In this document: piece by piece, positions 2,346-25,945 of the stretch
Layout of the letters: the number at the start of each line of letters is the position of its first letter
Position numbering within the stretch: position 1 is the stretch's first letter
Virus record (IMG/VR): IMGVR_UViG_3300035688_000002
Span: 1-64,000 of that record
Direction: 5' to 3' (one strand)
DNA length: 64,000 bases
Origin: a virus
Made by a program: the position numbers and the translations under genes
Notes under the pieces: generated by a model
Databases searched by the model: none
What the model was told of the DNA's origin: nothing
Seen by the model: the letters and a program-made list of their open reading frames with translations, nothing else

Positions 2346-2356
2346 ATTTTTCTCCC

Positions 2357-4529: not shown

Positions 4530-4535
4530 GCTGAT

Positions 4536-5096
4536 TTAGCCTTTTATTATCAATCCAATTCCCATCCAGTCTGGTTTGAAGGAGAAAAGAACCTTCAGAT
4601 AGCGACGCTCATCTCTCATTATTTCTCCCCAAAGCCTTTTTACTTCAACGGTGCTGGGATTCTGTTTATTTACGGTCATCGCATCATGGAAAGCAACAAT
4701 GTGCCTGGTTAGTGGCTCATACAGCCTGTAATCCTCCTTTACGGACTCATAAAGATGAGAGGCATCTATAAACAGAAGGTCAATTTGCCTCCCTTTTAGC
4801 CGCTCTTCCAACAGCATCACCGTCCCTGCATTATGGGAATCTCCCGCTATATCAGGGTTAAGATCTTTATGAATATCAATCCCAATGTGTTCAGCGTTCA
4901 AAATTCCCTCATAAAAGAGTTTCTGACGGTTCTTCTCTATCCCTATCTCTACCACTATCGGCTTTACGATGCCCCTGTTGCTAAAATACGCTCCCACAAA
5001 CTCAAGAAAGCCCCTCCATTCCTCTCTCTGCTGACTGGGAGCAAAAGAGTTAAAGAGCTTGTTAAATGTTTCAATATTTAGCATCAATATCCTCAC
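4536..5096 (-). CDS. class I SAM-dependent methyltransferase (Methyltransf_24-like)
   Basis: VEIGI, IGIDI, DLLFIDASH.YE.V..D, VAFHD. Confidence 0.8.
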   Translation of the reverse strand: MRILMLNIETFNKLFNSFAPSQQREEWRGFLEFVGAYFSNRGIVKPIVVEIGIEKNRQKLFYEGILNAEHIGIDIHKDLNPDIAGDSHNAGTVMLLEERLKGRQIDLLFIDASHLYESVKEDYRLYEPLTRHIVAFHDAMTVNKQNPSTVEVKRLWGEIMRDERRYLKVLFSFKPDWMGIGLIIKG

Positions 5097-5099
5097 TCT

Positions 5100-5846
5100 T
5101 TAAAATAGCTGGGGGTCATGAAGGTGCCTTTCACATTCACTCCTTATATCTGTCTCAGTAATATGATGGTGTTGCCAAGCCCATCTCCTCTCTAAGTTCT
5201 CCTTGCTTTGTCTGTCACGTTGATTCTTAATCCTCCTCTGCACTGCCATATCAGGGTCTGCCATCTGCCAATGAATTCCATCAAACCTTGTTTCTGAAAC
5301 CTGTATTTTGAGATTCTTCCGATAAGCGTGAAACCCCGGAACCCATTCAATTCCAACCTCAGGCTTTACAATGATTGGCTTCCTATACATAGCGTTTATG
5401 CCTCTGGTTCTATTTGGATCACCATGTCGACGTTGCCATATCGCTGGCGATGATGAGTCTAAGTCCTTATCATTAATGTGCCTATAAACCTGCCACATCC
5501 ACGCATAGAGAAGATTACCATCCGCCTGTCCCAGAGCTTCCCTCCATCCATCTCGGTTTCCCATTGGGAAAATAAGCTCATCAGCATCTGCATATATCAC
5601 CCAATCGCTCTTCAGACCCGAAACTGTCTTATTTATGTTCTCAGATTGTTGGAGACAGTTAAAGAGATTAGGATAGCGAAAATAATCAATTTTGACATTG
5701 GGATAGCGAGAGCAAATTTCGACCGTCTCATCATCCGTGTCAGCATCCACAATGACAAGAATCTCATTAGCAAATCTGTAATGACCAAGAAAAAATGGTG
5801 CTAAAAATGCCTCATTGTACCAAGCCGTAACAACAGTTATTTTCAC
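5100..5846 (-). CDS. glycosyltransferase, GT-A fold (family 2-like)
   Basis: YNE, DADTDD, WVIYADADE (DxD). Confidence 0.8.
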   Translation of the reverse strand: MKITVVTAWYNEAFLAPFFLGHYRFANEILVIVDADTDDETVEICSRYPNVKIDYFRYPNLFNCLQQSENINKTVSGLKSDWVIYADADELIFPMGNRDGWREALGQADGNLLYAWMWQVYRHINDKDLDSSSPAIWQRRHGDPNRTRGINAMYRKPIIVKPEVGIEWVPGFHAYRKNLKIQVSETRFDGIHWQMADPDMAVQRRIKNQRDRQSKENLERRWAWQHHHITETDIRSECERHLHDPQLF

Positions 5847-6781
5847 TTCGATGGTCGTTCTCCTTTATATCTTCCGCCAGGTTGCTCTCGTCTCTTCCAG
5901 CCATGCTTCATATCTGATCTCAAATCCTGACGATAATTGCCTGGATCCCAATTCTCTTTAGCTCTCTCCATCTCTTCGATTGTAAGCTTTTGGTCAAAAA
6001 GACTCACATCTTCATCTGAAAGACACGGAAGCCCGCGGTCTCTAAATAGTTGAAGGAGCCCCGAGGACATCTTCTCCTTTTTCTCGTTAATCTTCTCTCT
6101 CTCCATTGGAATAGCAAAACCGCAATGGCCACAATATCTATCAACCTGATCTCTGAACTCATCGGGGGTTTTGTTCCACCAACCGTGCTCAACAGGAAAA
6201 CCCCCTTCTCCATCAAGCACTAGGTCAAGGGCATAAGCGATTTCACAGAAAAAAGCTCCTTTGGGCCCTATTGTTGGACACCAGGTCCTTTGTGCCCAAC
6301 ACTCATCTATAAGTTTGTCCCGATATGTCTTATTCTCAACGACATCCTGGATAGCAATCGTGATTGGCTGATGGACACAAACATCCAACTGATGGAGGTC
6401 GTGTGGGTTATAGTTGATGTGGGAAAACGAATCTCTTATCACAGATAGACAGTCTTTGTATTTCTGCCCGCCCATCGTGAACAGTTGGGTTTTTGTCTTT
6501 AACCCTCGTTTCTTGATGAGATGGCAGATTTCAACAAATTGAGGGTGAATAGTTGGTTCACCACCTATTATTCCTATCAGTCCTGGCCATCCCTCAAGAG
6601 AGTCCAAGGCGCGTTCAACTTCCTCGAAGGACATGAAAAATTGCTGATCCTTACGAGTATGTCTAATATATCTGTCACAGTAGAGGCAAGCCTTGAGACA
6701 GACATTGGTAATGTCAATGTGACATAGATAGGATTCCCAAAGCGGTTTCATTTCTCCAACCTTCCAAAGTCCCTTCCCCAT
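5843..6781 (-). CDS. radical SAM protein
   Basis: ITNVCLKACLYC, GGEPTIHP, further Cys in the C-terminal half; true start may be 6751. Confidence 0.85.
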   Translation of the reverse strand: MGKGLWKVGEMKPLWESYLCHIDITNVCLKACLYCDRYIRHTRKDQQFFMSFEEVERALDSLEGWPGLIGIIGGEPTIHPQFVEICHLIKKRGLKTKTQLFTMGGQKYKDCLSVIRDSFSHINYNPHDLHQLDVCVHQPITIAIQDVVENKTYRDKLIDECWAQRTWCPTIGPKGAFFCEIAYALDLVLDGEGGFPVEHGWWNKTPDEFRDQVDRYCGHCGFAIPMEREKINEKKEKMSSGLLQLFRDRGLPCLSDEDVSLFDQKLTIEEMERAKENWDPGNYRQDLRSDMKHGWKRREQPGGRYKGERPSK

Positions 6782-7401
6782 AGCAACCCCCGTTGTGACC
6801 TTGCTAGGTAAACTCTTCGGTCTCTTTCTCGTACTTTATTTGCCAGTTTATATGTCAGGTCTTTGTCCCGATGATGTTCAACACTTATATCTTCCATAAA
6901 GTGAAATCTCTCGATCTTCTGTGCAAACATTCCCATCTCCGTATCAGAACCATAGTGAATGTAATCAGGACAGAAAACCTGATAATTTGGAAACTGATTT
7001 ATGAAGGCCTTTCCCATCAGACCAAAGGCAAACGGCGTGTTTTTTGGAGTAGAGAGCGTATTGAAGCCAATAAGACCCAATTTGTCTGGAAACTCATTCT
7101 CTAACCTATTCACAGCCTGTTTTATAAAACCTTTGGGAAAACAGAGGTCGTCTGAAGCATAAAGTGCTGCATCTGAGACAAAGGGCATAGCTCGGTTCAT
7201 TGAAAAGACATAGTCTCTCCTATACAGATTGAAGAGCAGTCCTACATCCATTTTCGCTACTGTTTCCAACAGCTTTTCATTCCCATCGGCTATAATCAAC
7301 ACTGAGAGGTTGGCATAGCCGTTCTCTAACAGTGAGAGAATAGCTTGTTGGAGGCTCTCAATGCGAGCGTGTGATGCAATAACAGCAGTAACGTGTGTCA
7401 C
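6748..7401 (-). CDS. glycosyltransferase family 2-like
   Basis: IIADG, YASDD, Y.HYGSD.E, VEH. Confidence 0.7.
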   Translation of the reverse strand: MTHVTAVIASHARIESLQQAILSLLENGYANLSVLIIADGNEKLLETVAKMDVGLLFNLYRRDYVFSMNRAMPFVSDAALYASDDLCFPKGFIKQAVNRLENEFPDKLGLIGFNTLSTPKNTPFAFGLMGKAFINQFPNYQVFCPDYIHYGSDTEMGMFAQKIERFHFMEDISVEHHRDKDLTYKLANKVRERDRRVYLARSQRGLLWGRDFGRLEK

Positions 7402-8222
7402 TTAGCCTCCAATGCCCCACCGATTCCCCACAGTTTCTGTCTGATAGGCTCTATAGTCTCTGGGTGTTCGCCCGTATAAGACACGACACCCGATACGTTA
7501 AACACCTTTGCCCATTCTGGTTCTGCCTTTTCCCTACAAAATCTCTCCCATTCAGTAACCCCATAGCCTGTCTTCCTGAAATCCCCTCGCTCTACATAGT
7601 AACGGAGCTTCCAGAATTTCTTCTCTTTCGAGACTGCATGTCCATAGTGATGGAAAGTCACATCATTAAGATACATACGTGTTGGGCTGAGAGCGTGAGT
7701 CCATTCAGAAACTCCAGGAATTCCTACACGGTTGTGCGTTATGTGTGTCATCCCACCACAAAGCCGCCAGGCTGAAATCTCCCTTGGCCTGCTCCATGCC
7801 CCGCCTGTAATAATATGTTTGTCGTCCCTCCAAAAGTGAATACAATTGTAAGCTAGAGCAAGACAAGTCTGGGGGAGGCTTTTCATATGACTTGAAAGAC
7901 GCTTAATATTTTCTTCTGACCACATCTCATCAGCGTCTTGAAGTACACACCAAGAGTTAATATCTCTTGGCATGAGAGACAGATAAGCTCTTCTCTGAAT
8001 AACCTTATGATCTGTCTGTCCAGCCTCATTCCTAAAAGTCCCGCTAATAACCTGCACTTTGACTCCAATTCTTCTGGCTATCTCTGCCGTTCTGTCTGTA
8101 GATGCACCCCAAGGGGAACCATCCATGACAAAAATACGATCAGCACGGTCATAAACACTCCTAATAGCTGCGTCTATAAAAACTTCCTCATTGTAAGCAA
8201 TCATGCCCACATAAAGTTTCAT
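7398..8222 (-). CDS. glycosyltransferase family 2
   Basis: MIAYNEE, DGS...STDRT, DADE, HHYG. Confidence 0.85.
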   Translation of the reverse strand: MKLYVGMIAYNEEVFIDAAIRSVYDRADRIFVMDGSPWGASTDRTAEIARRIGVKVQVISGTFRNEAGQTDHKVIQRRAYLSLMPRDINSWCVLQDADEMWSEENIKRLSSHMKSLPQTCLALAYNCIHFWRDDKHIITGGAWSRPREISAWRLCGGMTHITHNRVGIPGVSEWTHALSPTRMYLNDVTFHHYGHAVSKEKKFWKLRYYVERGDFRKTGYGVTEWERFCREKAEPEWAKVFNVSGVVSYTGEHPETIEPIRQKLWGIGGALEAK

Positions 8223-10987
8223 CTGTCTGCTTCCAACATCTCTTTTGCCACTTTCAACACCTGCTCTAAGTCCAAATGCGTCATACAGTCAGGAATTCTA
8301 ATATTCTCTTTTGCTCTGTGGGGACCAGAGCCAAGACACGGAGTAAAGAAATCACAATAATTCCTTTTGGGAAAGAGCGAACACTTTCCCTGTATTGGTC
8401 TCATTGACTTAAACATTTTTGAAAAGACACTTCCGTTTCTGTTGCTAAAGAGAGTCAGAACTGGAACATTCAATGCTCCTGCCAGATTAGACAAACCGCT
8501 ATCTGGTGAAACAACTAAGTCTGCTAATGAAACAAGAGCAGCAGCCTGCCGAAAAGTAAAAGAAGTGTCGTCTTCGAATGAGATTACGACACTATGTTGG
8601 TTGGCAAGTTTTATTCCAAGAGACCGAATAGGCTTCCAAACCTTGAGTTTGTTGCTCCCCTTCTCAACTATCAATATCCTCTTTTTCTTCTCCGGCATCT
8701 TCCACAGTCGCTCCGCCCACAATCTCTCTTCGTCCATTACAAAATAATCAGGCTTAAGATTGTCAGAATCTGAATGAATGAGATTGAGATAAATCTTAGT
8801 CCTCGGACTCTTTATCTCCCCGTATTTCTGCATCTCTATCTGTTCTATCCTGAATTCTACATCTGTGATATCAATCGAGTAGGAACAACCCTCAGGAACA
8901 GGATTATCATGAAGATAAATTGCATCTATGTTCGGATTGTTTGTTAAAACACACCGATATCGATCCGGCACTGCGTAAACTACTCTGCATTTCTTACCCA
9001 GAGCTTTTAACTCCCTTGCAATAACAGTCGAAAAGAGAATGTCTCCATAACCACCCATTCCCCTTTTGATTAATACTGTAACACGCCTTTCCTTCTTTAG
9101 AGAGTCTTGGATATCAGAAATAGGCATTCCCCCATGCCACTCAGGGCCTAACTTAGAAAGCTGCTGTCTTTCATGGGGATCAATTCCCCATATCTCACGA
9201 TAGAGTGCCACATTCTTATTCCAATTCTCAATGTGTTTCTTGCCTTCTTCCCGATTCGATTTTACAACTCCACCCAAAGCATGATAGTAAATAGCTCCAT
9301 AATCTTGGACAAACTGCCCCCTCGCAAGTCTTATTCGCAGCGTGTAATCATTGTCTTCGATGTAACGAGGTTTGAAACGCTCATTAAAGAATCCTACTTT
9401 CTCAATACACTCTCTCGAAAAGACCGTACAAGAGTAGGAACCAGCAGGAATATCAGCTATAACTGCTACATCATGAGACTGGGGTTTGGTGCTATTGATA
9501 TCCCAAGGTGCTATCCGCTCCATGGGTGTAGCTGTTATCCCAAAGGCTTTTATCTTCTCGGCAGTTTCCATGAGTCTATTTATCGTATCATATCGGAGAA
9601 CTAGATCATTGTTCAAAAGGACAAGTTTGTCATAGTCTCCCTCCATGAATTTCTTCATAGCTATGTTTTGAGCCTCTGCCACACTGGTTTTCTTTGAGAC
9701 AAAGCTGATTCTCTGTTTTTTAAGCCATTCTTGCGTCCCATCGGTTGACTCATTATCAACAACAAAAATCTCATAGTCATGGAAACTTTGTATCGAGGCC
9801 AAGGCTTTAGAAGTCATCTCTTTGAGATTATAAGTCAACATGGTCATGAGAAGTTTCCTCGGTTTTTTTAAATGACATTCCAAAGTCTCCATAATTTTCT
9901 CTGGAGACAATCGATCGAGACACTTAGCCACTCCTGCCTGCTCCTTCTCCTGATAACTTTTCCCCGGAAGACAATCCACAGTCCACCAACAGGGAGTTTC
10001 CTTCCTTCGCAAGGCACACGGAGCCTGAATGACGAGAGCTTTTTCATAATCTTCCGTGAAAATCTTCCCGTCTGTATTTCCAAAGACACCTATGATTCTC
10101 TTTTTAAGAGCCCCAGCAATGTGGAGGATTGCCGAGTCTACAGAAATTACTACATTACACTGGGAAACTAAGGCTGCCATCTCTCTAAAAGAATAATCAA
10201 ACTTTCCATTTTCTACCTTGTCTAGAATAATAACTCCGAGGCCCTTCTGTTTGATTCTCTCTATCACCTTGGGCATCCCTGGATAAATCTTGCATTTGCC
10301 AACCGAATGCAGACCGACTCCGATAAGTGGCCTGCTAAGTCCTTTTAGAACACTCTTAGCCCACTCCCTTTCTTCGTCACTTATTTCATAGACCGGAATT
10401 CTGTCAATAACAAACAGTCCGAGAGCTTTGAGGAGAATGTCAGAGCGATGCTCATAAGCCTCATTCTGTCCTCGAAGTTGCTTCTCTCTGAATTTGAGTT
10501 CTAGGTCATTGGCATTGATTCTGATGTCGAAGCCAGGAAGTTCAAAGAGTCCTTTTTCTTTGCGAGTGTGAGTAGCATCTACATAGGGATTCCCTCTCCA
10601 TACCGACTCAAATGCTTTCATCACTCCCACCTCAACTGTCACTTTATCTCCGTAAGCATCTTTATACGCCTTTGGGAAAATCGTTGATAAAAGGTGATCG
10701 CCGTATCTGTCCACCAGCCCCACATCTATCAAAACTCTCATGCTTCCTTTAGATGCAGAAATTTCCTGTGTAGCTTTATAAGCGTTCCAGAGCTCAGGAG
10801 AAAGAAAGAACTGACCGAAATCGAGATTGCCTATAATAGCCTCAAACCTTGCCCCTCCAGGAGGAATAACTATGGGCTCCATATTAGAATCATAGAAAAT
10901 CTCCGGAGCCTTTCCTCTATTTACAAACATTCTGCCATGTGGTGTTCTAAACACTGCTCCCTCTGTTTTTCTCAGCGGGTCTTCCAT
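8219..10987 (-). CDS. tri-domain glycosyltransferase GT9-GT2-GT9
   Basis: First GT9 (YGD.L, SVDSAILHIAGAL), central GT2 (TYN, VVDNESTDGT, LNND, EDND), second GT9 (GYGDIL, SPDSGL.NLAGAL.VP). Confidence 0.85.
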   Translation of the reverse strand: MEDPLRKTEGAVFRTPHGRMFVNRGKAPEIFYDSNMEPIVIPPGGARFEAIIGNLDFGQFFLSPELWNAYKATQEISASKGSMRVLIDVGLVDRYGDHLLSTIFPKAYKDAYGDKVTVEVGVMKAFESVWRGNPYVDATHTRKEKGLFELPGFDIRINANDLELKFREKQLRGQNEAYEHRSDILLKALGLFVIDRIPVYEISDEEREWAKSVLKGLSRPLIGVGLHSVGKCKIYPGMPKVIERIKQKGLGVIILDKVENGKFDYSFREMAALVSQCNVVISVDSAILHIAGALKKRIIGVFGNTDGKIFTEDYEKALVIQAPCALRRKETPCWWTVDCLPGKSYQEKEQAGVAKCLDRLSPEKIMETLECHLKKPRKLLMTMLTYNLKEMTSKALASIQSFHDYEIFVVDNESTDGTQEWLKKQRISFVSKKTSVAEAQNIAMKKFMEGDYDKLVLLNNDLVLRYDTINRLMETAEKIKAFGITATPMERIAPWDINSTKPQSHDVAVIADIPAGSYSCTVFSRECIEKVGFFNERFKPRYIEDNDYTLRIRLARGQFVQDYGAIYYHALGGVVKSNREEGKKHIENWNKNVALYREIWGIDPHERQQLSKLGPEWHGGMPISDIQDSLKKERRVTVLIKRGMGGYGDILFSTVIARELKALGKKCRVVYAVPDRYRCVLTNNPNIDAIYLHDNPVPEGCSYSIDITDVEFRIEQIEMQKYGEIKSPRTKIYLNLIHSDSDNLKPDYFVMDEERLWAERLWKMPEKKKRILIVEKGSNKLKVWKPIRSLGIKLANQHSVVISFEDDTSFTFRQAAALVSLADLVVSPDSGLSNLAGALNVPVLTLFSNRNGSVFSKMFKSMRPIQGKCSLFPKRNYCDFFTPCLGSGPHRAKENIRIPDCMTHLDLEQVLKVAKEMLEADR

Positions 10988-11949
10988 ATCACTTCCTCAG
11001 TAGCTTTTTCAACCATCTCCCAGACTCTCGCTTTTGGGACTTCCTTCAAACATTTAATTGTCATTGAGCATTTCTCGCCTCTCTCAAAGCAGGGCTCACA
11101 GCCTACTTCAGAGCAGAGCTTCACCTCTCTTACCCCATCGGGATACAGTGGATGCCTCGAAAGCCTTACATCTCCTAAAGAAGGCCCCGTAATGAGAACA
11201 ACTGGGGTGCGAGTAAAGTGAGCGAGCCAAAGAGGCATTGTATCAACAGTTACTATCACCCTTGCTCTCTCAGTAAAGCTTAGAAGCTTGAAAGGATCGA
11301 TCCTCCTATTCTCTCCTATGTGAATGAGGGTTTTATATTTCCTTTCAAGATTCTTAGCAATGAATTCTGCTGTATCAGGAGGCAAAGTTTTTCTTTCGTT
11401 AGTCCCTGAAGAACAGAAAAGCACTCCTGCAAGCCCAACTGGGGGCGTCTTTGAAGTCCAAACAACGGGCTTTGAAGAATCTAATTCGAGAAAATCCCGA
11501 TAAATATCAAGCCGATTCTTGTGTGAGTAGCTCTCATCAGTGTGATCTCTTTCAAGGAGACCATCCATCAAAACTCCGACGGTTTTTCCATTACTTATAG
11601 GAGAAAGAGTGTAGCTAATCCCATCCAAAACTCCCTCATTAAAGTTTTGGAGCAACCCCGATTTGTGAATATCAAACGACGTTACAAATGAGAGTCTCCT
11701 TCCCGGATATTCTTCTTTGAATTGCCGAGCTACGGGGAGAAAAATGAGACTGTCTCCCATAGCATATCGTCTGACAAAGATAATGTGACTGTTTTTTTGA
11801 AAAACAGATTTGAAAGCTTTTAAGATTTCAAGTTTGGGACTGTCATAGGCAGTGAAGCGAATGTCTGCCAAAAAACGAGAAGGAATCTCAGTCGGCTCCA
11901 TTTTTTCATCGTAGAAAACCTCTGGGGAGCCTCTATTGAAGACTTTCAA
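10972..11949 (-). CDS. glycosyltransferase family 9 (heptosyltransferase-like)
   Basis: RRYAMGD, VTVDT.P..LA, TPVV.I.GP, C.PC...C..CL; TTG start after GGAGG. Confidence 0.8.
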   Translation of the reverse strand: MKVFNRGSPEVFYDEKMEPTEIPSRFLADIRFTAYDSPKLEILKAFKSVFQKNSHIIFVRRYAMGDSLIFLPVARQFKEEYPGRRLSFVTSFDIHKSGLLQNFNEGVLDGISYTLSPISNGKTVGVLMDGLLERDHTDESYSHKNRLDIYRDFLELDSSKPVVWTSKTPPVGLAGVLFCSSGTNERKTLPPDTAEFIAKNLERKYKTLIHIGENRRIDPFKLLSFTERARVIVTVDTMPLWLAHFTRTPVVLITGPSLGDVRLSRHPLYPDGVREVKLCSEVGCEPCFERGEKCSMTIKCLKEVPKARVWEMVEKATEEVIWKTR

Positions 11950-12051: not shown

Positions 12052-13245
12052 TCAGCTTGTAGTCAGCGTGACTGTTGCCAGTCCATCTTTGATGAGAGTG
12101 CCATAAGCGAATCTGCTCATCAAGCCTTTTCTCGGAATGAAATCGTCTGCGTCGATGATTTTTGGGGTCACATACAGCGGTATGTAGGGAGAGTAGAACC
12201 CCACAGCGTCTGTCCAATTTTCTCCCTTATAGCCCATTAAGAGCTTGTTTGCAACTGGGAAGAATGGGTCTTTGTAGACCTTGAATCTGTCATTCAAGGT
12301 TCCGACAAGATGCCTTCCGATTGTGTATTCGCCTGGCTGTCCGTTTTCGCTGGTCTTGAACTCTTCGAGCTTTTCGAGCCTGACAACTGCGTCCGGGTGG
12401 CCGATAATCCAGGTGGCATAATTGAATCTCTTTTTGAAAATGAGATTGCTGGCGTCGATGATGGCTTCATAGATTGTCTTTCTGTAGTCTTTTCTGTAAG
12501 TGGTTGTAGTGTCGCCCGCCAAGTAACCGTTAATATTCCAGTTCACGTTTCCAGCACCTGTTCCGAGGCCGGTTCCTGTCCCTGTAGCCCCTGCAAGCAG
12601 GCAAGCAATGATTAGACCGTCGATTTCTCGCACGATCTGGTCCTGCAACACTTTTGTCAACTCAGTCTCTGCTGAGAGCTTATGATAGGCCTGCAAGTCC
12701 TGCTCGAGTTCAACTGTCCATTTTGCCTTGAGCTTCTTCTCAATAGCAGTCACTGTCTCGTCAGTGATTTCCATGTCAATTTCTTTGACGGCCCCTGTCT
12801 CTGCGGATGTAGAATAATCCTTGTCTCTGATGTCTGCAACCGAGTCTCCTGCCGAACCTCCAGCTGGTGCATCATGGTATTTGAAATCGAGATAGAAGAT
12901 TTTGGCTGTAGGCTGGTCAATGGGCTGGACTGAGACCAAGTCCATTGCTATTAGCCTGTTAAAGATTTTCCTTACCAGGGGCATAGCGACTGTTGTGAAG
13001 GTGCTGATCTCTCCTGTTGTGGTTGTAGCTTCGAGAAGGTGCTTTGCTTCGTTTTCCAAAACCTTTGCGATGACGAAGTCACGGCTCATATCACCCGCCT
13101 CGATTTTCCCTGGGTCTAGGTCTGCTATAAGAGCGTTGTAGCTTTCAGCAAAGAATTTGACAGGGTCTTCCATGAGCATCTTCCGCTCTGGACTCTCTCT
13201 GTGACTAACAGCTAGATGTTCTGTCAGTTCCTCAAAAATGTTCAT
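12052..13245 (-). CDS. major capsid protein, T4 gp23-like
   Basis: LVSVQP...PT..IFYL, V.A..KKLKAKWT.EL.QDL.A.H, G.FY.PY.PL, F.P.KGL.SR.A are gp23-family motifs; likely processing site LLE72|A. Confidence 0.93.
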   Translation of the reverse strand: MNIFEELTEHLAVSHRESPERKMLMEDPVKFFAESYNALIADLDPGKIEAGDMSRDFVIAKVLENEAKHLLEATTTTGEISTFTTVAMPLVRKIFNRLIAMDLVSVQPIDQPTAKIFYLDFKYHDAPAGGSAGDSVADIRDKDYSTSAETGAVKEIDMEITDETVTAIEKKLKAKWTVELEQDLQAYHKLSAETELTKVLQDQIVREIDGLIIACLLAGATGTGTGLGTGAGNVNWNINGYLAGDTTTTYRKDYRKTIYEAIIDASNLIFKKRFNYATWIIGHPDAVVRLEKLEEFKTSENGQPGEYTIGRHLVGTLNDRFKVYKDPFFPVANKLLMGYKGENWTDAVGFYSPYIPLYVTPKIIDADDFIPRKGLMSRFAYGTLIKDGLATVTLTTS

Positions 13246-14510
13246 CTTTTCTCCTCCCTCTTGAGTTTTACACCCCCAAGAGCCTGCACTCTGCTGTGCA
13301 ATTTCTTAACTTCTTCCTCACCTGCACCCTCTATGAAAGTTTTGCCTCTACTTTTTCCCTTTAGGCCACCTGGACCAAGGTCTTTCTGAAGAGTCTCGAC
13401 AAACTCTTTGTAGCTCTTAACAGCCTCATCTACTTCTGCTTTGGTCTTTGGCTTCTGTTCGAGAATCTTGGTCTTCATCAACGCACCAAACTGAAAGTCA
13501 CTTGTCTTCTCTGTGAGATATGTCAGAACGGCCTCCTCGTTCCTCTCGTCCTCGATTTTCTTGACTTTGTCTTCCTTCTCTTTAAGGCTAGTGTTGACTA
13601 CTGTGAGTTTATCTTCCAGTTCGTCGATTTTCTCTCTCATGGCCAGCTTGTCTGTATCCTCTGCTGTCTGATCACCTGCTGGTTTCAGATACTCACCGGT
13701 AGTGAGAATCTCAGCGATGGCATTGATGGTTGTGAGATGGCGCTCGATCTCCGCGTCCTTTTCGTTCAGCTCAGTTTCCAGCTCGGTGACGCGCGTCTTC
13801 TGCTCTGTCAGCTGTTTCTGAAATTCGGCATCGAGGTCAGTTTTAACTTCCTCCCTCAACTCTTTCTTGAGAGCTTCTACGAGATCGGGATGATTTTTCT
13901 TGAGTTCCTCAAGATTCATAGTTTTAACCTCCGTTTCTGAATTCTGCCCTTCAGAGCTTTCTATGTACTGCTTTATTTGAGCAGTCAGCACTGATGGGTC
14001 AATGACAACATCAAAAGCATTAAACCTATACCCTTTTTCAATCTTTTCTACCTCACCAACGCCCGGCATAGTCAACGGAGCGCTTTTACCCTTGCCTCTT
14101 GAAGAGAGGCCAGGACGGCCACCCGCTCTAAGAATTTCCTTCAGGACGAGTCCTGGAGGAGTATTCAGCACCAGAAGATCAGCCATAAGCTGATTTTCTT
14201 TCCCCTTCAGAGGATTCCACTTAAGGTCAGTGACGAGGTGAGATGTCTCTTTGAGTTTGCCCTTGAATTCAGGATGATCAACCTCACAAAAGACTCTCTT
14301 CTCTTTGATAAGGGGCATCAGAGCTTGAACCGCATCATCCAATGTCTCACGGGGATAAATTCGCTTATTTTTGTTGACTGTGTCCGCTTCCTGAACGACA
14401 GCAGTTACGCGTATCCTAGGCTCACCCTTACCGGATGGGTCAGTGACTTCTTCAAAGTTAAGTTCCTCAAAGAAATCTTCACGTAACTCTTTCCAAAGAC
14501 TTTCAGCCAT
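13242..14510 (-). CDS. prohead core protease (T4 gp21-like) fused to a C-terminal coiled-coil scaffold
   Basis: N.N.RIYP, E.DHP, SH, G.SSRG.G, FD.V..PS followed by a Glu/Lys-rich coiled coil; directly upstream of the capsid gene. Confidence 0.9.
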   Translation of the reverse strand: MAESLWKELREDFFEELNFEEVTDPSGKGEPRIRVTAVVQEADTVNKNKRIYPRETLDDAVQALMPLIKEKRVFCEVDHPEFKGKLKETSHLVTDLKWNPLKGKENQLMADLLVLNTPPGLVLKEILRAGGRPGLSSRGKGKSAPLTMPGVGEVEKIEKGYRFNAFDVVIDPSVLTAQIKQYIESSEGQNSETEVKTMNLEELKKNHPDLVEALKKELREEVKTDLDAEFQKQLTEQKTRVTELETELNEKDAEIERHLTTINAIAEILTTGEYLKPAGDQTAEDTDKLAMREKIDELEDKLTVVNTSLKEKEDKVKKIEDERNEEAVLTYLTEKTSDFQFGALMKTKILEQKPKTKAEVDEAVKSYKEFVETLQKDLGPGGLKGKSRGKTFIEGAGEEEVKKLHSRVQALGGVKLKREEKR

Positions 14511-14579: not shown

Positions 14580-14855
14580 TTATGCCTTCCATTCATATGG
14601 CTTAGTAGCTCTGCGGTATCCGCTAGAATAAGCGTATTGCAGATTCTCAAGGAATTTCTCGCCATCTTTCGCACTGAATTTCTTGCCTCTCATTCCAGAA
14701 ATTCCTTTCTTAAGAACAAATGAGGCTAAGCCATTCATTCTGTCTTCAATGACCGAGATAGTCTTGCCATCCCAGCCAAATGCCATAATGACATATTCAT
14801 GACCGGTAGGCTCCACCATAAAGACATCTACTCTTTTCATGTTCCTGTCCACCAA
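14580..14855 (-). CDS. small protein coupled to the kinase-containing MuF-like gene (candidate immunity or partner protein)
   Basis: 91 aa; overlaps the 3' end of 14837..18037 by 19 nt. Confidence 0.6.
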   Translation of the reverse strand: MVDRNMKRVDVFMVEPTGHEYVIMAFGWDGKTISVIEDRMNGLASFVLKKGISGMRGKKFSAKDGEKFLENLQYAYSSGYRRATKPYEWKA

Positions 14856-17800
14856 GAGTCAAAGACATGATAGTCAAATCTCTTGGATTTCAAAATGTTC
14901 TTTACTCTAGCCCAAAAGTGTTTCATAGCAGAATCTTCAATGCCACACTTCTTTGCGAGAGTGTTTATCTCTTTCCTTCTCTCAACCAATCTTTCAACCC
15001 TTGCTAAGAGTTCTCTAGGAATAGGTTCGCCTCTGACAAGCTCAAATGGAAGACTCTGATACGCATCACTGACGTTCCTAAGAGCCATAGAATAGCCATT
15101 GTCTATTGCCCACAATCTTGCCTGCCCTTCACGCGCCTTTGTAAGAAGAACATTTGCGATGTGCCTGTCGGTGTTTCCAATTAGCATATCAAACAAAGCA
15201 ATTTTCTTTAACTGAAGCTTTGCCTCAACAGTGAGATCGGGAATCGCTCCCATTGCGCTCATGTGTTTCCACTCTTCGAGTGTCATAGCCTCGGCACCTA
15301 GGTGTTTCTGAACTGAGCCAGCACCCCTTGAACCTTCTTTGAGAGCAGTCTCAGGAACGATATTGTAGCCGAGTCTCTTATCCAACTCATAAGAGAAGGT
15401 CTCACGTCTTGCTGCGTCTGTTGATTCGTCAAATAAGTCTAAGCGTCCTCCCCATGTTGGATCCTCGCCCTTAATAGGCTTATAAATTCCGCGAGAGCCA
15501 TCTTCGAGTTCCACTGTTATTGATTCATTAAGTCCGCCTCTTGCAATAGGTGTTTCTCTAACGACCTTTGCATTTTCAAAAGTGAGAGGCAATTGCTCTG
15601 CTGGAGTGGGTTCAGTCAAAAGAACAGAATCTGCGGGTGTCGTCATGAATGTTCCTTGTGGCCTTTTTATTGTGACCATGTTCCCTTCTATCTTCGTCAC
15701 AGTTCCTACTCTAATATTGACTCCTACACACTCCCAGACGACCATCCCAAGCCTTATGCATGGGCCTTTAGCTCTGAACTGCTCCAAGAGGATTTTGCTC
15801 TTTAAGAATCGGAGTCCGGGCATTAGTTTAGCCATATGACTTTCCCTCTCTTCTTCAAGAGATTCAGCCTTTTTAGCAGGAAGTGTAAATTTTACCCACC
15901 AATGAGATTGTTTCTGGGTCAAAGGTCTTCCAGGGCGACGAAAAGTTGACCATCGCTCACCATGATCGATAATCTTAGCACCAGGGATCGCCCTTTGAAT
16001 CTTGAGTGCCTCCTTCTCAGAAGACCCTCCGTGTGAAAGAAAGAATTCTTTATGAGCAATGTAGATCTCTCCCTTTTTTTCGATTGTATTAAAAAGGAAT
16101 CCTTTTGACGCTAAAAGATTCTTTATTTTATCTGGAGAGGCGCCTGCTACTCCCATTACTCCCATTCTGCTATCAGCTCCCCACCTACCTGGTTTGTTGT
16201 GATGCTCACCACTTCCTGGCCCACCTTCTCCTATCACAGCCTTCTCTCCGCTCATTGGAGACAGAACAAAAATGAGAGGAACATAGAAAATGCTTTCGTC
16301 TCCCTTAGCCAACGCTTCCTCTGTTTCATAGTCACCCTTATGGACGGCGGCAATCCAAGAAGGAGGAATACGCCCTTTGACATAATAAGACCCCTTGGGA
16401 GCGTGTATATCTGCGATCATCTCCGTCTTCTTTGGCACTCTCACTTCAAAAACAATGATTTTTGGCTGCTCCCTTAGACTAAATTTCATTCGAAGTTCAT
16501 CACCGATAACCTTGCCCCATGACTTTGCATCAAAGAGTGTAGAACACATAAAAACTGAATTAGCCCTCTCCCCAGTATAGTAATAGTCAGGGAAATTCCG
16601 CTGCCCAAAACCACCAGGAACGCCACCAGGGACAATTCCATTCTTCTTTATGCTATTTACTGCCTCGGCTGTAGTGCTATGATAAAAGATTAAGGCTGTT
16701 CTGTTTCCCCATCTTCCGGGTTTATTATGATGCTGTCCGCTTCCAGGCCCGCCTTCCTCTATCACAGCCTCACCCCAGCCAATGGGACATTTCCAAACTT
16801 CTCTGACTAACTCAAGACCCCGATTCCTCAGTGCTTCTGCCCTCTTAACGACATCCCCTGAGCTCCAACGAGGAACAGCTCTCACATTATAAGACTGCTG
16901 AAGCTGAATAATCTCAGCATTGACAAGCTTCCTAGATGCTGCATACTGGGCAAGCTCATCTCCTGAAGATAAAGACATCTTTGCTCGAAGGAGATTCATC
17001 TCGTCAAAGAGATCAGAAAAGAGGCGCACGACATCAGATGAGACAGGCCCTCCTTCTTCAGTTGCCACTAAGCAAGAGGAACTCTCTAATCCTGTCCTTG
17101 ATACTCCTGTTTCTGGGGCTGCCCCAAACCCTCCAAATCCTCCTGGCTGTTCGGTGCCAAAGCCTGGGTTCACATAAGCAAGCGAGCAATAACAACGAGA
17201 AAGACAAACAGTGTCGCCTGCCCTTGGGACTGTTGGTAGAGTCGATCGGGTGTAGGGACTGCCTGCGTTTAATTCAATGCAATCATCACAGTGATCGGAT
17301 ATAGGATGCCCAAGCTGCCAATGAATGAGCTGTTGCTCAGGAGCACAAGCAACATAGCCATTCCAAAACTGTGCATCTAAGGATTTAGCATATTCCTGCG
17401 CTCTAACCGAAGCTGACAAGGAGGAAAAAACAGCTTCCTGTTTTCTTTGGGTTGAAGTCCCTACCTGAATGTTGGCAAGAAATCGCTGTAAGTATCGCTG
17501 CTCTGCTTGTTGGGCTGTTACTCCGAATTTCATATCGACGGTTGTCAGCCCCATATCTTTGTAATAGGGATTCCCCGTTCTCATTCCGCCATATCTGAAA
17601 GCCTGTTGGTAAGCATCAGTCCCAAAATCTTTGAAGCGCTCTGCTGCTGTTTTTATAGAAAGTCCTCCCTCACCCACAGCTTGCACTATATCCTGAATCT
17701 GAAGCTCAAAACCTTTTCGCAGCTTTTGATATCCTGAAAGGGATGCTCTATAGGCAGTTTTATCAAACCCCCCGACTGAGACAAAAGCCTGCGTGAACAT

Positions 17801-18037
17801 ATCTCGCTCTGGGTCTCCCACAAGCCCTGCCCCCATTAGGGATTTGCTTGACTCATACCAATACCAGTCTATTTCATCAAAGAGTTCTTCGATGAATGGG
17901 CCTTCGTCACTTTCCGCCTTGATTATCCCTTTTGCTAGAAGCCCCCGAAAGACCCTGAGAGCCTTTTCCTTAGAGTCATAGACACACGGGCCTTTCCCGA
18001 TATGCCACTTCCCATTGGAACACTGCCTTATTGGCAT
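14837..18037 (-). CDS. MuF-like minor head polyprotein with an ADP-ribosyltransferase-fold domain and a C-terminal HipA/PI3-PI4-kinase-like domain
   Basis: HCDDC...C..RC.C MuF-like motif; FYHST....SI.KNG (Tpt1/ART fold); GIYKP, RE..SY, VP.T, GSVQ, D.LIGN.DRH..N.L, AIDNG kinase motifs; two EGGPGSGxHHNKPGRWG motifs. Confidence 0.8.
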   Translation of the reverse strand: MPIRQCSNGKWHIGKGPCVYDSKEKALRVFRGLLAKGIIKAESDEGPFIEELFDEIDWYWYESSKSLMGAGLVGDPERDMFTQAFVSVGGFDKTAYRASLSGYQKLRKGFELQIQDIVQAVGEGGLSIKTAAERFKDFGTDAYQQAFRYGGMRTGNPYYKDMGLTTVDMKFGVTAQQAEQRYLQRFLANIQVGTSTQRKQEAVFSSLSASVRAQEYAKSLDAQFWNGYVACAPEQQLIHWQLGHPISDHCDDCIELNAGSPYTRSTLPTVPRAGDTVCLSRCYCSLAYVNPGFGTEQPGGFGGFGAAPETGVSRTGLESSSCLVATEEGGPVSSDVVRLFSDLFDEMNLLRAKMSLSSGDELAQYAASRKLVNAEIIQLQQSYNVRAVPRWSSGDVVKRAEALRNRGLELVREVWKCPIGWGEAVIEEGGPGSGQHHNKPGRWGNRTALIFYHSTTAEAVNSIKKNGIVPGGVPGGFGQRNFPDYYYTGERANSVFMCSTLFDAKSWGKVIGDELRMKFSLREQPKIIVFEVRVPKKTEMIADIHAPKGSYYVKGRIPPSWIAAVHKGDYETEEALAKGDESIFYVPLIFVLSPMSGEKAVIGEGGPGSGEHHNKPGRWGADSRMGVMGVAGASPDKIKNLLASKGFLFNTIEKKGEIYIAHKEFFLSHGGSSEKEALKIQRAIPGAKIIDHGERWSTFRRPGRPLTQKQSHWWVKFTLPAKKAESLEEERESHMAKLMPGLRFLKSKILLEQFRAKGPCIRLGMVVWECVGVNIRVGTVTKIEGNMVTIKRPQGTFMTTPADSVLLTEPTPAEQLPLTFENAKVVRETPIARGGLNESITVELEDGSRGIYKPIKGEDPTWGGRLDLFDESTDAARRETFSYELDKRLGYNIVPETALKEGSRGAGSVQKHLGAEAMTLEEWKHMSAMGAIPDLTVEAKLQLKKIALFDMLIGNTDRHIANVLLTKAREGQARLWAIDNGYSMALRNVSDAYQSLPFELVRGEPIPRELLARVERLVERRKEINTLAKKCGIEDSAMKHFWARVKNILKSKRFDYHVFDSWWTGT

Positions 18038-19663
18038 GATTCAAACTGACAGCGTGTCTGTTATATTTATCTCAGGGGTGTCCAAAGTGACTTAGCAGCC
18101 CACATAGAGGGTTTTACTCTCCATCTGGGATTCGCTGGAACGCTCTTAGGTCTCAATGCTCTGACTCTTGCCAATCTCTGATTCCACTTTTGAAGTGCTG
18201 CCTTAGCCCCTGCACTTCCGAACCTTTTTGCTCCAATAGCAGCTCCGGTAGCCTTCTTGACTATGCCCTTCTCGACTCTCTGATATTGTTTCTTATAGGC
18301 ACGGGCGCTTTTTGCCGCAAAGCGCCCAGAATAGGCCCAAAACCTTGGGCGGCCAGCTACCGGTGCCGCTTTGGCAGATACTGGAGCGCGCAAGATTCTC
18401 TCTCCATGACCAGGTGCACCCGCTCCCCCACCCCCTCCCCAGCGTCCGGGCTTATTGTGATGTTGCCCAGAACCAGGGCCTCCCTCGATGAACCCTCGAT
18501 AATCTCTAATAATGTTTGCTAATCTTTCTTCATAAGACATGAATTCCTCCTTACATACTCCCACCATGACCTCTGACTATATCTTTTACTTCCCCCCAAG
18601 AAGCACCGCCTTTTGATCGACCCAGGCGCCTATATGCTCGCATAGCTGAATCAACTGTGGCTTGGGGCTTCCCGCTCTGTTTGAGATAAAATTCGATAGA
18701 AAGTTTCTGACTGCGAGCTATGTGTCCCTTTGGATTTCTATGAACGTCTTGAGCTGCTCTAGTGGCAGCATCAGCAGATCGGATTTTCTGAAAAAGTGAA
18801 TTTAGCTCCGACTTGGGATAGGTTACATCGAGAGGACGGAGACTTTTGTCACTTCCACCCCCGCCTCCTCCCCATCTCCCTGGTTTATTATGGTGTTGAC
18901 CACTTCCTGGCCCTCCCTCTGTAAATCTCTCATAATCAATCACGATATTTGCCAGCTTTTCTCCATAGTCCATGAATTCCTCCTTGCCTGTCATTCTCAA
19001 TTTTCTCTGAAGAGACTTATATTGCCAGCTATCGAGACCGTGTTTGTGGCTGGTGTCCCACAAGAGGCTTATCTTTGCCTGACGATATCTTGCTGAATCA
19101 GTGCCATACTTTTTGGCAATCTTATCTATCTTCGAACCTGTTTCTTTTACCCATCCTGAGCGAGCTTCACTTCCACCTCCTCGCTTGCTAGTCCCTCCCG
19201 TTCCCCAACGGCCTGGCTTATTGTGATGCTGTCCGCTACCGAGACCCCCCTCAGCAATATCCTCGTGAGTTCTTTGTGTCTCGATACGGCTCAATAATCC
19301 TGCAAAAGTACTCCTTGTGTTAGCAAGCGGATAAAACCTGCGTGGCTCTTCTCTAGATGAGATAGACTTGAGAGTCTTATCAAGAGCTAACACCTGCCGA
19401 CGTAAATGGTCACCAGTTCTTATCTGATCAGCCCTTGAGATTGTCATCCCCAAATATGTTTTCTTTATCGCACCAAGGTCTTTCTTATCAAGATACGCAG
19501 TGTGCAACAGAACGTCACCTATGTCAGAAGGCAACCCTGCTATGTCGGTTGTCCCTATTCGTTTTCCTGCCCCATCCCCTTTCTCTGGTGCTTTCTCTGC
19601 TCCTCCGCCAGTACCCCACCTTCCGGGTTTATTATGGTGTTGGCCTGAACCTGGACCACCTTC
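16178..19663 (-). repeat. six dispersed in-frame copies of a 17-codon motif EGG(P/L)GSG(Q/E)HHNKPGRWG
   Basis: Copies at 16178-16228, 16706-16756, 18436-18486, 18869-18919, 19202-19252 and 19613-19663; peptides near-identical, codons differ. Confidence 0.95.
18067..18540 (-). CDS. basic putative internal head protein with one GGPGSG motif
   Basis: Likely start ATG 18540 (GGAGGAATTCATG) just after the upstream stop; Arg/Lys/Ala-rich. Confidence 0.75.
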   Translation of the reverse strand: MSYEERLANIIRDYRGFIEGGPGSGQHHNKPGRWGGGGGAGAPGHGERILRAPVSAKAAPVAGRPRFWAYSGRFAAKSARAYKKQYQRVEKGIVKKATGAAIGAKRFGSAGAKAALQKWNQRLARVRALRPKSVPANPRWRVKPSMWAAKSLWTPLR

Positions 19664-19678
19664 GATAATTGTTTGCAT
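18551..19678 (-). CDS. putative internal head polyprotein with three GGPGSG motifs
   Basis: Three motif-led basic modules; internal RBS+ATG at 18973. Confidence 0.8.
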   Translation of the reverse strand: MQTIIEGGPGSGQHHNKPGRWGTGGGAEKAPEKGDGAGKRIGTTDIAGLPSDIGDVLLHTAYLDKKDLGAIKKTYLGMTISRADQIRTGDHLRRQVLALDKTLKSISSREEPRRFYPLANTRSTFAGLLSRIETQRTHEDIAEGGLGSGQHHNKPGRWGTGGTSKRGGGSEARSGWVKETGSKIDKIAKKYGTDSARYRQAKISLLWDTSHKHGLDSWQYKSLQRKLRMTGKEEFMDYGEKLANIVIDYERFTEGGPGSGQHHNKPGRWGGGGGGSDKSLRPLDVTYPKSELNSLFQKIRSADAATRAAQDVHRNPKGHIARSQKLSIEFYLKQSGKPQATVDSAMRAYRRLGRSKGGASWGEVKDIVRGHGGSM

Positions 19679-19745: not shown

Positions 19746-19949
19746 TCATTTCTCTTCTTCTACGGCTGTCAGAGTCCCTTTGCAATCTTTCTCGGGACAG
19801 GGCTCTCCATCACAGGGTTTATCCCAAGTCACTTCCGCTCCGCATTCGTCACACTCACAGGTGTAAGTTTCTTTGTCATCCTGCTCTCTTCTCTCCCATT
19901 CTACCACATACTCCTTATAGGCAGTTAGAATGTCATTATAGTCTTTCAT
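19746..19949 (-). CDS. small acidic Zn-finger-like protein
   Basis: GGAGG RBS before ATG 19949; CECDEC...PC...CP..DC. Confidence 0.65.
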   Translation of the reverse strand: MKDYNDILTAYKEYVVEWERREQDDKETYTCECDECGAEVTWDKPCDGEPCPEKDCKGTLTAVEEEK

Positions 19950-20014
19950 ACTTTCACCTCCTGAAAGATATCTTCTCATGTTATTTTTCTATCTACCTCT
20001 AATACCAAAATTTC

Positions 20015-23208: not shown

Positions 23209-23709
23209 TCACTCCCTCAGATGCCATCGCCCTTTTGATGATCTGGCATATTTTGACTCAAACCTGAACCATGCCCACTTTCTCGGGTCTGCCTTTTCCA
23301 GACCTTCAATGAAGTACTCCCTCCACTCTTGAATGAGATCAAGCCTGTAATTGAATAAGCGTCTCAGAATGACTGGGACTGTCTGAAGCTTCTCGAATCT
23401 TTCAGCCTGGATTACATAGCCATTGTCTTTGATCCACTTACGGATTTGTGACTGATCCCATTTGTCTTTGGCAAAGAGAAGTGACTGGGTAATCCATTTC
23501 CCTTTCTCGTCTTTGCAGCGTACTGCCTTTAATCCTTTGTCTGCGCTGAGGACGAGCATTGCGTATGTTCCCTTACAGGCTGAGGGAGGTCTCTGTCTGA
23601 CTCTGAAATTATTGGCTGCATCCTGACCCGGATCGATCCCAGGCTCCCAAAAATCCTGTCCGTTTATCTCAAATTTAAGCGGAGGACAATCGAGACATTC
23701 ATCTTTCAT
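23209..23709 (-). CDS. hypothetical head-module protein
   Basis: 166-aa ORF with RBS; RVRQR.P...QSLLF.KDKW....RKWI pattern. Confidence 0.6.
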   Translation of the reverse strand: MKDECLDCPPLKFEINGQDFWEPGIDPGQDAANNFRVRQRPPSACKGTYAMLVLSADKGLKAVRCKDEKGKWITQSLLFAKDKWDQSQIRKWIKDNGYVIQAERFEKLQTVPVILRRLFNYRLDLIQEWREYFIEGLEKADPRKWAWFRFESKYARSSKGRWHLRE

Positions 23710-24262: not shown

Positions 24263-25945
24263 TCAGTAATACTCAAATCTCCCACCGGAGAGAGCCGCTT
24301 TTACCGCTTTCTCCGTTTCTCTTACCAGTTTCGTCAGTCTCTCATCTGCTGACATTCTCATCAGTATAGAATCGAGTTCGCTCTCGGAAAGAGGCTTTCC
24401 ATCACCACCTCCAATAGCCCATGCCGTTTGCGGTTGTGGAGCTCCCTTCGACACGGGCGGAGTCTTCCCTGTTAGAGCAGGCCCTGGTGCAGTTTTAGGC
24501 ATTTTTTCTGGTTCAATCTCGGGTGATTTCCCTGGCTCAATGCCAGCCTGGGGGGCTGGTTTCTTTGCTGTAGGCTCTTGCATGCCTTTCATCATATCCA
24601 GAAGCTCGTCCGCTTCATTAGGAGACAGCCCCAACATCAATTTTCTGACTATCCATTCAATAGGGAGAGAAAGTCCCATTCCGCCATACAGAGTCACAAC
24701 TTCCGCTTTCAGCCTCTCGATAGTCCATTTGGCTTCTTCGTCGGGCGACCCTAACGCTGGGAATTTGAGCTTCCAGACAAAGGCTGTAGGATCGACACCG
24801 TTAATCATAAAGTTAAGTCTGTAAAGCTTCCTAAGACCCTGCGCAAGAGAATATCTGTGTCTTCTTACCACTCTCATAAAGGCAATGCCTTGCTGTTGCA
24901 GTGTGGCTTTGGCATTTACGTCTCTTTCATAACCCAGAAAAGCTTTTGGAACCTTTGTGGCACAAAAGAGCTTATTGTGGAAATGTTCCACATCCTCAAT
25001 TTGCCCCAAGTGTCTTTCTCCTCCAACTACCTCATAGTCAGAAGATGGTCTGTCTTTTCTGACTGGAACGTAAATGTCTTCAAGCGGCTGAAGCGGATCG
25101 AGTTCTGTCTTCAGCTTACCGTCGCTGGAAAAATAGAGACGCCTTTTATTCAAGAGCTTAACACGTCTTATGTATTTCAGGGCTTCTCTCTCACCCATAC
25201 CTGTAACATCGATTTTATGCTTGCCTCTCTGATTCGACCGAGCCACTCGGGTAACAACGACAGTGTCTTCGAGCAGCCTTTGGACTCTGAATGTCCTTCT
25301 CAATTTTCCAAACAGAGAGTAATCGACTCCATAGTCATCTTCTCCCACTTTAAAATGTATAATCTCCCACGGAGCAAACTGAGCTACGATGCTCAAGAAG
25401 TCTGCATCTCTTTGGATGTATGGGATGTCTGATTCTATGGAACCGTCTTTTTTGTAATTGATAAAGACCTCTGCAGGAGGGATGAATTTGATTTTGACAA
25501 TCTCGTTATCTGTAGAGCAAATCACTTCATAAAAGGCATCACCATATTTAATGACATTCCTTGACATGAACCACAGTCTGTCTTTGATTTGCAGCCTTTC
25601 ATCCAGTTCCTCAATGAGATTTGCCTCTTTGTCCAGTCCCTCTTTCTCAAACTCGACGTTGTAGGTTTCACTCATTTCGCCGCCTGCCGAAACGACAAAA
25701 TCTGCATGAAGATCGAGAGAAGAGGAAAGCTCAACAATGTCATCATCCATCTCGTCATAATCTTTGTATTTTTCGAGCCTTGCTGGCTTGAGCTCGAAGA
25801 GTTTAGATTTATCCCATGAATATTTGGGTCGCTCTGTTGTTATTCCAGGGAGATCACCTTCAGGCTCGCCTCCCTTTTTGAAGACTGAGGTGAGCCTTTT
25901 GATGAGACTTTTCTTTTCGGCTTCTGTCCCCGATGTGTCAGCCAT
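24263..25945 (-). CDS. portal protein (T4 gp20-like)
   Basis: LED..V..R..R...R....IDV, ED.YVP.R, L..IEDV..F..KL.....VP..FL motifs; lies between terminase and head genes. Confidence 0.88.
   Translation of the reverse strand: MADTSGTEAEKKSLIKRLTSVFKKGGEPEGDLPGITTERPKYSWDKSKLFELKPARLEKYKDYDEMDDDIVELSSSLDLHADFVVSAGGEMSETYNVEFEKEGLDKEANLIEELDERLQIKDRLWFMSRNVIKYGDAFYEVICSTDNEIVKIKFIPPAEVFINYKKDGSIESDIPYIQRDADFLSIVAQFAPWEIIHFKVGEDDYGVDYSLFGKLRRTFRVQRLLEDTVVVTRVARSNQRGKHKIDVTGMGEREALKYIRRVKLLNKRRLYFSSDGKLKTELDPLQPLEDIYVPVRKDRPSSDYEVVGGERHLGQIEDVEHFHNKLFCATKVPKAFLGYERDVNAKATLQQQGIAFMRVVRRHRYSLAQGLRKLYRLNFMINGVDPTAFVWKLKFPALGSPDEEAKWTIERLKAEVVTLYGGMGLSLPIEWIVRKLMLGLSPNEADELLDMMKGMQEPTAKKPAPQAGIEPGKSPEIEPEKMPKTAPGPALTGKTPPVSKGAPQPQTAWAIGGGDGKPLSESELDSILMRMSADERLTKLVRETEKAVKAALSGGRFEYY

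Follow-up and report, generated by a model that had tools for sequence, protein, structure and literature searches.

The first 64,000 nucleotides of the IMG/VR virus record IMGVR_UViG_3300035688_000002 (hereafter, the window) come from the 100,802-bp genome of an uncultured phage, which has direct terminal repeats and is rated complete, and hold on their minus strand a stop-free open reading frame of 1066 aa (14837-18037), here called P0001, that joins a phage head module to two enzyme-like domains. On balance, and with slightly more confidence than doubt, we interpret P0001, in a phage whose head is of the T4 type, as a capsid-cargo polyprotein that would be loaded into the capsid, cut, retained, and ejected, and whose ADP-ribosyltransferase (ART) and kinase would act in the host. 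The presence of a protease of the T4 gp21 type at the locus and of a glutamate before every copy of a conserved peptide tag in this genome suggests this more specific mechanism, in which a polyprotein would be cut into separate pieces of cargo.

Architecture of P0001

P0001 runs from the head module through a tag, an ART-fold domain (domain A), a second tag, and two small domains (B and C) to a PI3/PI4-kinase-like domain. A 743-aa fragment identical to residues 324-1066 lies on an independent short contig, and the fusion is therefore not an assembly join. An exhaustive HMMER search with residues 420-835 delimited three homology units (A, B, and C), not two. An initial annotation, made from the DNA alone, had placed a tag and a single unknown domain behind the ART-fold domain; the tag is there, and the unknown region resolved into two domains, B and C, each with small stand-alone homologues. 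The features of the gene and of the small gene coupled to it are as follows.

14837-18037 (-): P0001, putative polyvalent head-cargo gene, 1066 aa, open frame
16754-18037 (-): N-terminal head module, residues 1-428; a stand-alone protein of ~360 aa in relatives
17180-17326 (-): five-Cys motif, residues 238-286, MuF-like core; invariant columns in the alignment
16706-16753 (-): tag 1, residues 429-444, preceded by Ile-Glu-Glu
16238-16702 (-): ART-fold domain (domain A), Tpt1/KptA NAD-lobe-like, residues 446-600; conserved His, aromatic residue, and Asp
16178-16225 (-): tag 2, residues 605-620, preceded by Ile-Gly-Glu
15842-16153 (-): domain B, small alpha/beta, residues 629-732; homologues mostly stand-alone, ~90 aa
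15593-15808 (-): domain C, SH3/Tudor/KOW-like small barrel, residues 744-815; homologues ~75-85 aa
14876-15520 (-): PI3/PI4-kinase-like domain (SCO1664 / type II PI4K-like), residues 840-1054
14580-14840 (-), from an ATG (86 aa), or to 14855, from a TTG (91 aa): coupled small gene; ATGA overlap

The tag and the residue that precedes it

The tag is a glycine-rich peptide of 16 residues, GGPGSG followed by QHHNKPGRWG, that occurs six times in the genome, in three adjacent head-region genes (twice in P0001, three times in 18551-19678, and once in 18067-18567). The six copies are near-identical as peptides, two of them with one substitution each, and 67-78% identical as DNA, with serine codons that switch between TCN and AGY, which indicates that selection acts on the tag peptide. 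Recent duplication of the tags was ruled out because the peptide is kept at so low a DNA identity, and DNA recombination joints were ruled out for the same low identity. In other phages, the homologues of domain A follow a related and far commoner form of the tag with the core NFGHAGRPG, which a degenerate DNA pattern recovered from at least 110 viral contig stretches in IMG/VR; the tag of this genome is a local variant of that canonical form. A literature search for the tag strings found no paper in which they appear. Contigs of these IMG/VR loci (L012-L121) carry as many as nine copies of the canonical tag each, and in about half of the loci a canonical MuF domain is encoded as well, frequently within the tag-bearing open reading frame.

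All six tags of the genome directly follow a hydrophobic-x-Glu motif (Ile/Phe-x-Glu). T4 gp21 and its giant-phage homologues cut after Glu at L/I-x-E, and phiKZ at S/A-x-E (PMC9026906), and the neighboring gene at 13242-14510 matches Peptidase_S77, the T4 gp21 family, over the curated cut-off. Within any one contig the tags are always preceded by the same residue, which changes from contig to contig: it is Lys, Asn, Asp, Leu/Ala (in some cases with Arg/Lys two places earlier), or Glu, while the other upstream positions vary freely. When 276 tags were sorted by the other content of their locus, Glu preceded the tag in 21 of 21 cases at loci with the P0001-type head module, in none of the 124 at loci with a canonical MuF domain, and in one of the remaining 131; the 21 tags represent six loci, or about four independent phages besides the window phage. 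At one head-module locus, L149, a direct parallel to P0001, the module is followed by a tag and an ART-fold domain of the domain A family; more tagged modules come after these in that gene and in the next three, which makes eight tags in all, each behind Leu/Ile-x-Glu. This stretch (L149:3-6214) comprises a 1293-aa head-module fusion and the three following genes, and at least two of its modules look like ARTs of the Arg-Ser-Glu type.

A hydrophobic-x-Glu with Ala/Thr after it also stands immediately ahead of the conserved core in the capsid proteins of the lineage. The site is present in the window's capsid protein (residues ~70-80) and in eight of nine homologues, and by analogy with the propeptide cut of gp23, it is likely a maturation site; the tail of the scaffold has a similar one. 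Glu-Gly-Gly sites at residues 123 and 328 were not counted, being unconserved in homologues. The search that finds S77 in the window genome yielded no S77 protease in 47 other viral records with tags, 15 of which are 90% complete or better, and an S78 protease was detected in two of 32 tag-bearing records, both with Lys before the tag, which is suggestive but too thin.

Since the same tag is kept despite different preceding residues, and hence probably different proteases, the tag is likelier to signal an address or a handling step than to belong to the recognition site of one protease, and as such is a lineage-independent label. We tentatively entertain the broader possibility, in which we place somewhat less than even confidence, that it is a universal, protease-independent address label for capsid-carried, ejected proteins, always located right after the cut site of the resident maturation protease. 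If this were true, injected effectors and the protease specificity of each phage would be readable from sequence alone.

Head module and genomic context

Every gene near the P0001 locus lies on the minus strand, and the setting is that of a head module comprising terminase, portal, P0001, S77 protease-scaffold, and gp23-type capsid protein; with its T4-type protease and capsid protein, this setting fits virion delivery as for T4 Alt. The neighboring features are as follows.

27676-29763 (-): large terminase (PHROG and Pfam scans)
24263-25945 (-): portal gene (phrog_213, E 3e-34)
Between the portal and the P0001 region (-): small genes, ~6 kb (PHROG and Pfam scans)
18067-19678 (-): P0003 and P0004, two genes upstream of P0001; four tags before small, mostly basic modules
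13242-14510 (-): prohead protease-scaffold fusion, T4 gp21 type (PF03420, 45-47 bits; phrog_207)
12052-13245 (-): major capsid protein, T4 gp23 family (PF07068, E 5e-57)

The P0001-type head module was found at 61 metagenomic loci, with its gene directly after the portal wherever the contig includes the portal. Portal and then head module occur in more than 20 related loci, often in the order portal, module, S77-like protease, and gp23-like capsid protein; the window differs from these relatives in the ~6 kb of extra genes that separate portal and P0001. The homologues P0008-P0010 are 49-53% identical to the head module and end at most nine residues from the position of tag 1. No isolated phage matched the locus by megablast, tblastn with the head module gave a single weak match, and no tyrosine integrase (PF00589) was found in the complete genome.

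The initial annotation had seen a MuF-like Cys motif in this module; the MuF likeness is backed by a profile-profile match of the motif and by the portal synteny, and not by the Pfam model. The Cys and Pro/Arg/Gly columns of the five-Cys motif are invariant in the homologue alignment, and deep-profile hhalign matched the motif to the C-terminal MuF core (probability 87%, E 3.7e-6), over just 52 of 138 columns. The signal came from deep profiles only, a thin MuF alignment giving an hhalign probability of 3.5% against the head module, and the ESM Atlas returned a MuF lead at 0.89 only. The Phage_Mu_F model (PF04233) had no match on P0001 (E<=1), in the whole genome (E<=10), or on six homologues, and a jackhmmer search seeded with a genuine MuF domain recovered SPP1 gp7 and Mu F and not the P0001 head-module family. 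The Cys-motif match and the synteny thus weakly support MuF membership, and we read the module as the positional, and probably the distant evolutionary, equivalent of MuF/gp7 and not as a member of the Pfam MuF family.

In the closest relative, L122 (portal 48% and capsid protein 68% identical), the head module is a stand-alone protein of 364 aa that ends at most nine residues from the start of tag 1 in P0001, and immediately behind it an 85-aa gene of its own encodes a homologue of domain C; tag, ART, and kinase are all missing from L122. The first ~54 residues of P0001 (17876-18037, minus strand) match the N-terminus of a separate 246-aa gene of L122 (L122:9995-10735), which also has a zinc finger like that of the window's open reading frame at 19746-19979 and a C-terminal part like the one at 23209-23709; these segments have been reshuffled between L122 and the window phage. 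On a 109-kb viral contig (L008:8663-20185), an open frame of more than 3800 aa has the same Cys motif in its N-terminal part, followed by weak, sub-threshold Pfam matches to NUDIX and other families, and is a giant polyvalent protein on a P0001-type carrier.

One of the modules of P0003 and P0004 is ~120 aa long, very basic, and rich in Ala, Lys, and Arg, reminiscent of T4 internal proteins, and a leader of ~27 residues is duplicated before two of their four tags. The capsid gene is followed immediately by glycosyltransferase-like genes, which form a run over 309-11949 (minus strand), where a 922-aa open reading frame matches glycosyltransferase PHROGs.

Enzyme-like domains and the coupled small gene

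An AlphaFold2 model of domain A, built from a 12-sequence alignment (pLDDT 79, pTM 0.71), had the ART fold, so that the structure prediction by which the initial annotation had proposed to check its ART-fold domain (at about 16700-16330) agreed with it. The best Foldseek match in the PDB was Tpt1/KptA (E 1e-4, 25% identity, rmsd 2.6), and the cholera, pertussis, and DarT toxins came next; VIA-align ranked KptA (Z 11.1) above an Rhs ART toxin (9.5), DarT (8.9), and Arr (8.3), with an ART fold in 50 of 50 chains among the matches listed. The domain A family profile matches Pyrococcus horikoshii Tpt1 by sequence alone (E 1.4e-6). Both the profile and the structures align to chain residues ~90-180, that is, to the NAD lobe only; domain A starts right after the tag, and the N-terminal RNA-binding lobe of Tpt1, with the Arg-His-Arg of the catalytic tetrad, is absent, and domain A is therefore an ART-superfamily domain and not a Tpt1 orthologue. 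Its homologues occur within large multidomain phage proteins and as proteins of ~200 aa, and the fold is common in phage proteins, some of which are annotated as head-morphogenesis or structural. Among 105 distinct family members, His453 (99%), Thr455, Gly467, Arg491, Phe496, and Asp543 (82%) are conserved, and by analogy His453, Phe496, and Asp543 may form a NAD-site triad (His, aromatic, acidic). Apart from Gly454, P0001 retains every family-conserved residue of the domain.

Domains B and C, modeled together at pLDDT 81, matched no Pfam or PHROG family and are small and non-enzymatic. Domain B is a small alpha/beta sandwich with middling similarity to phage neck proteins and ribosomal S6 permutants (Z 6.3-6.9), and domain C is an SH3/Tudor/KOW-like barrel (Z 6-8), a widespread arrangement.

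The kinase-like domain aligned end to end with TIGR03843, the SCO1664 family (E 8e-21), and matched, weakly, PF00454 (E 4.5e-5), HipA_C, and Fam20C; a five-sequence profile of the kinase matched the type II PI4-kinase PI4K2B (E 2.7e-4). It misses both curated cut-offs, scoring 23.9 against 27.1 bits for PF00454 and 74.5 against 172.4 bits for TIGR03843. The ATP-site Lys, the helix Glu, the DRHxxN loop, and the Asp-Asn-Gly are present, and all are invariant in an alignment with four TIGR03843-type proteins, so that profiles and alignment together bear out the HipA/PI3-PI4-kinase-like domain with intact K, E, DRHxxN, and DNG that had been predicted for the C-terminus. A literature search found no paper on the function of the TIGR03843/SCO1664 family.

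The coupled small gene had been annotated as a 91-aa open reading frame overlapping the P0001 stop. The overlap is as described (ATGA), and the start is better placed at the ATG at 14840, which fits the starts of the homologues and gives 86 aa, than at the alternative TTG at 14855, which gives 91. In an iterative search of all fetched loci, homologues (34% identity) were found only in L139, L142, and L177, where head module and kinase, the latter of the same family as in P0001, are fused without a tag and followed within 15-45 nt by the small gene; the gene was absent from 12 loci that run from head module to protease without a kinase. It had no match in Pfam, PHROG, or NCBIfam, none in the PDB by profile, and no hhalign signal against Escherichia coli HipA. 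The ESM Atlas model of the protein (pLDDT 0.60) has a loose likeness to the HipA N-terminal domain and to HIRAN (TM 0.48-0.57), which recalls HipS, the protein that completes and restrains HipT; we treat this model-based likeness as a lead, not a result. We take the 86-aa protein to be dedicated to the kinase as its partner and most likely to act in the producing cell, as an inhibitor or as a regulatory subunit.

Proposed mechanism and alternative explanations

We propose that the head module would carry the P0001 chain into the prohead core, where the neighboring gp21-type serine protease would cut after Glu428 and Glu604 and produce a head module of ~47 kDa, a tag-ART piece of ~19 kDa, and a tag-B-C-kinase piece of ~52 kDa. 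These pieces would stay in the capsid and leave with the DNA, like T4 Alt and the internal proteins, and in the new host the ART-fold domain would use NAD+, and the kinase ATP, on host targets. The initial annotation had put forward a virion-delivered NAD-dependent transferase plus kinase; the two folds, their key residues, and the head-module setting were recovered, and from these we infer delivery, the use of NAD and ATP, and the existence of host targets.

Several observations weigh against this mechanism. Cleavage, packaging, and enzyme activity are all deduced from the sequence. The hydrophobic-x-Glu motif is short and common, and thus weak on presence alone; its association with the lineage amounts to about five independent phages, and a protease type could be assigned to only a few of the other tag-bearing phages (S77 in none of 47 records, S78 in two of 32). 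The kinase-bearing relatives (L142 and its kin) are tagless, so that a fused, uncut form also exists, and the pairing of kinase and small gene represents two independent clades, L139, L142, and L177 being close kin. In the ART-fold domain, the catalytic Glu is absent and the Gly454 position is Ser (His-Ser-Thr), while 90% of the family has His-Gly-Thr.

The tags could instead be flexible linkers or domain-shuffling joints, with P0001 persisting uncut as a minor head protein to which enzymes are appended. A common view of polyvalent proteins is that each acts as a single chain (PMC5512222), and the fusion of the kinase without a tag in relatives agrees with this explanation, which we nevertheless consider unlikely: the tag peptide has been held constant while synonymous sites diverged, the DNA identity is too low for recombination joints, the position before the tag obeys a lineage-specific rule that matches the type of the resident protease, and a plain linker need not retain the His, the Lys/Arg-Pro-Gly, and the aromatic residue across hundreds of phages. 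It is improbable that the ART-fold and kinase-like domains have lost catalysis and act within the capsid as structural or binding modules; the His-Ser-Thr, and kinase scores that fall short of the Pfam and NCBIfam cut-offs, are what such a loss might look like, but all family-conserved ART-fold residues except that Gly are kept, and the kinase has its Lys, Glu, catalytic loop, and metal-binding Asp intact.

We find it quite improbable that P0001 represents a polymorphic toxin of the MuF type, with an immunity gene downstream, that serves competition between lysogens rather than host takeover. The combination of a head domain, toxin-like domains, and a small coupled gene does resemble the MuF toxins (PMC5576092), and in keeping with this analogy, already drawn in the initial annotation, the small gene travels with the kinase. 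The analogy otherwise fits less well, given that the complete genome yielded no tyrosine integrase, that the phage has a T4-type head and terminal repeats, that two effectors would face one small gene, and that the Pfam MuF model found no match.

Comparison with known systems and significance

Proteins injected by phages are their first weapons against the host, yet they are difficult to recognize. The P0001 locus brings together a protease of the T4 type whose cutting rule is known, a conserved cargo tag present in hundreds of uncultured phages, and a residue before the tag that tracks the head type, and this combination gives a testable rule for finding ejected effectors and predicting protease specificity. 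It also adds two enzymes to those likely to be injected, a Tpt1-like ART and a kinase of the PI3/PI4 type that has a dedicated small partner, neither of which was found by keyword in the two main surveys (PMC5512222 and PMC5576092). Effector fusions to head proteins, polyvalent proteins, and T4 Alt with its targeting and processing are already known; new here are a conserved tag that stands behind a cutting residue specific to the lineage, an example of the T4 type that uses a MuF-like carrier, and, as putative cargo, a kinase of the PI3/PI4 type that has its own dedicated partner.

Among enzymes, the closest counterparts of domain A are Tpt1/KptA and the small ARTs of the Arr type, whose NAD-binding lobe is its best structural and profile match and with which it has in common the His-Gly/Ser-Thr start and the conserved Arg and Asp; it differs from Tpt1/KptA in being ~125 residues long and in having no N-terminal RNA-binding lobe. 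The kinase resembles SCO1664 (TIGR03843), to which it aligns over its full length, and has the same catalytic loop and Asp-Asn-Gly as PI4K2 and HipA, in a group that also includes HipT; it differs from TIGR03843 in scoring far below the equivalog cut-off and in being fused to putative phage head cargo.

As a system, P0001 is most readily compared with T4, which packages and ejects the ART Alt (PMC9026906). Both phages have a gp21-type protease and a gp23-type capsid protein, an ART is borne in the head module here too, the cut-site type of processed T4 head cargo (hydrophobic-x-Glu) stands at the module borders of P0001, and the small basic tagged modules in the neighboring genes resemble the internal proteins IPI-III. 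The cargo of T4 is encoded by separate genes with a 10-residue N-terminal leader, whereas that of P0001 is strung on a head-protein polyprotein, its pieces would keep the conserved tag, and a kinase is among them.

P0001 is also comparable to the polyvalent proteins of phages and conjugative elements (Iyer et al. 2017, PMC5512222), in which a late-gene polypeptide encoded next to virion genes bears several unrelated effector domains, with ART as a hub domain, and fusion to a head-associated domain occurs; P0001 has two unrelated effector domains, ART and kinase, on one polypeptide in a virion-gene context. That paper proposes autoprocessing by a metallopeptidase, not cutting by a prohead protease, and its text contains none of the terms linker, HipA, PI3K, phosphatidylinositol, Tpt1, or KptA, so that the repeated tag, the PI3/PI4-type kinase, and the Tpt1-like ART seem not to be treated there. 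With the MuF polymorphic toxins (Jamet et al. 2017, PMC5576092), in whose description the terms kinase, linker, cleav, and conserved motif do not occur, P0001 shares a head-morphogenesis domain, toxin-like domains, and a small downstream gene, and it differs from them in having no Pfam MuF match, two effectors in place of one, and no integrase found in its genome.

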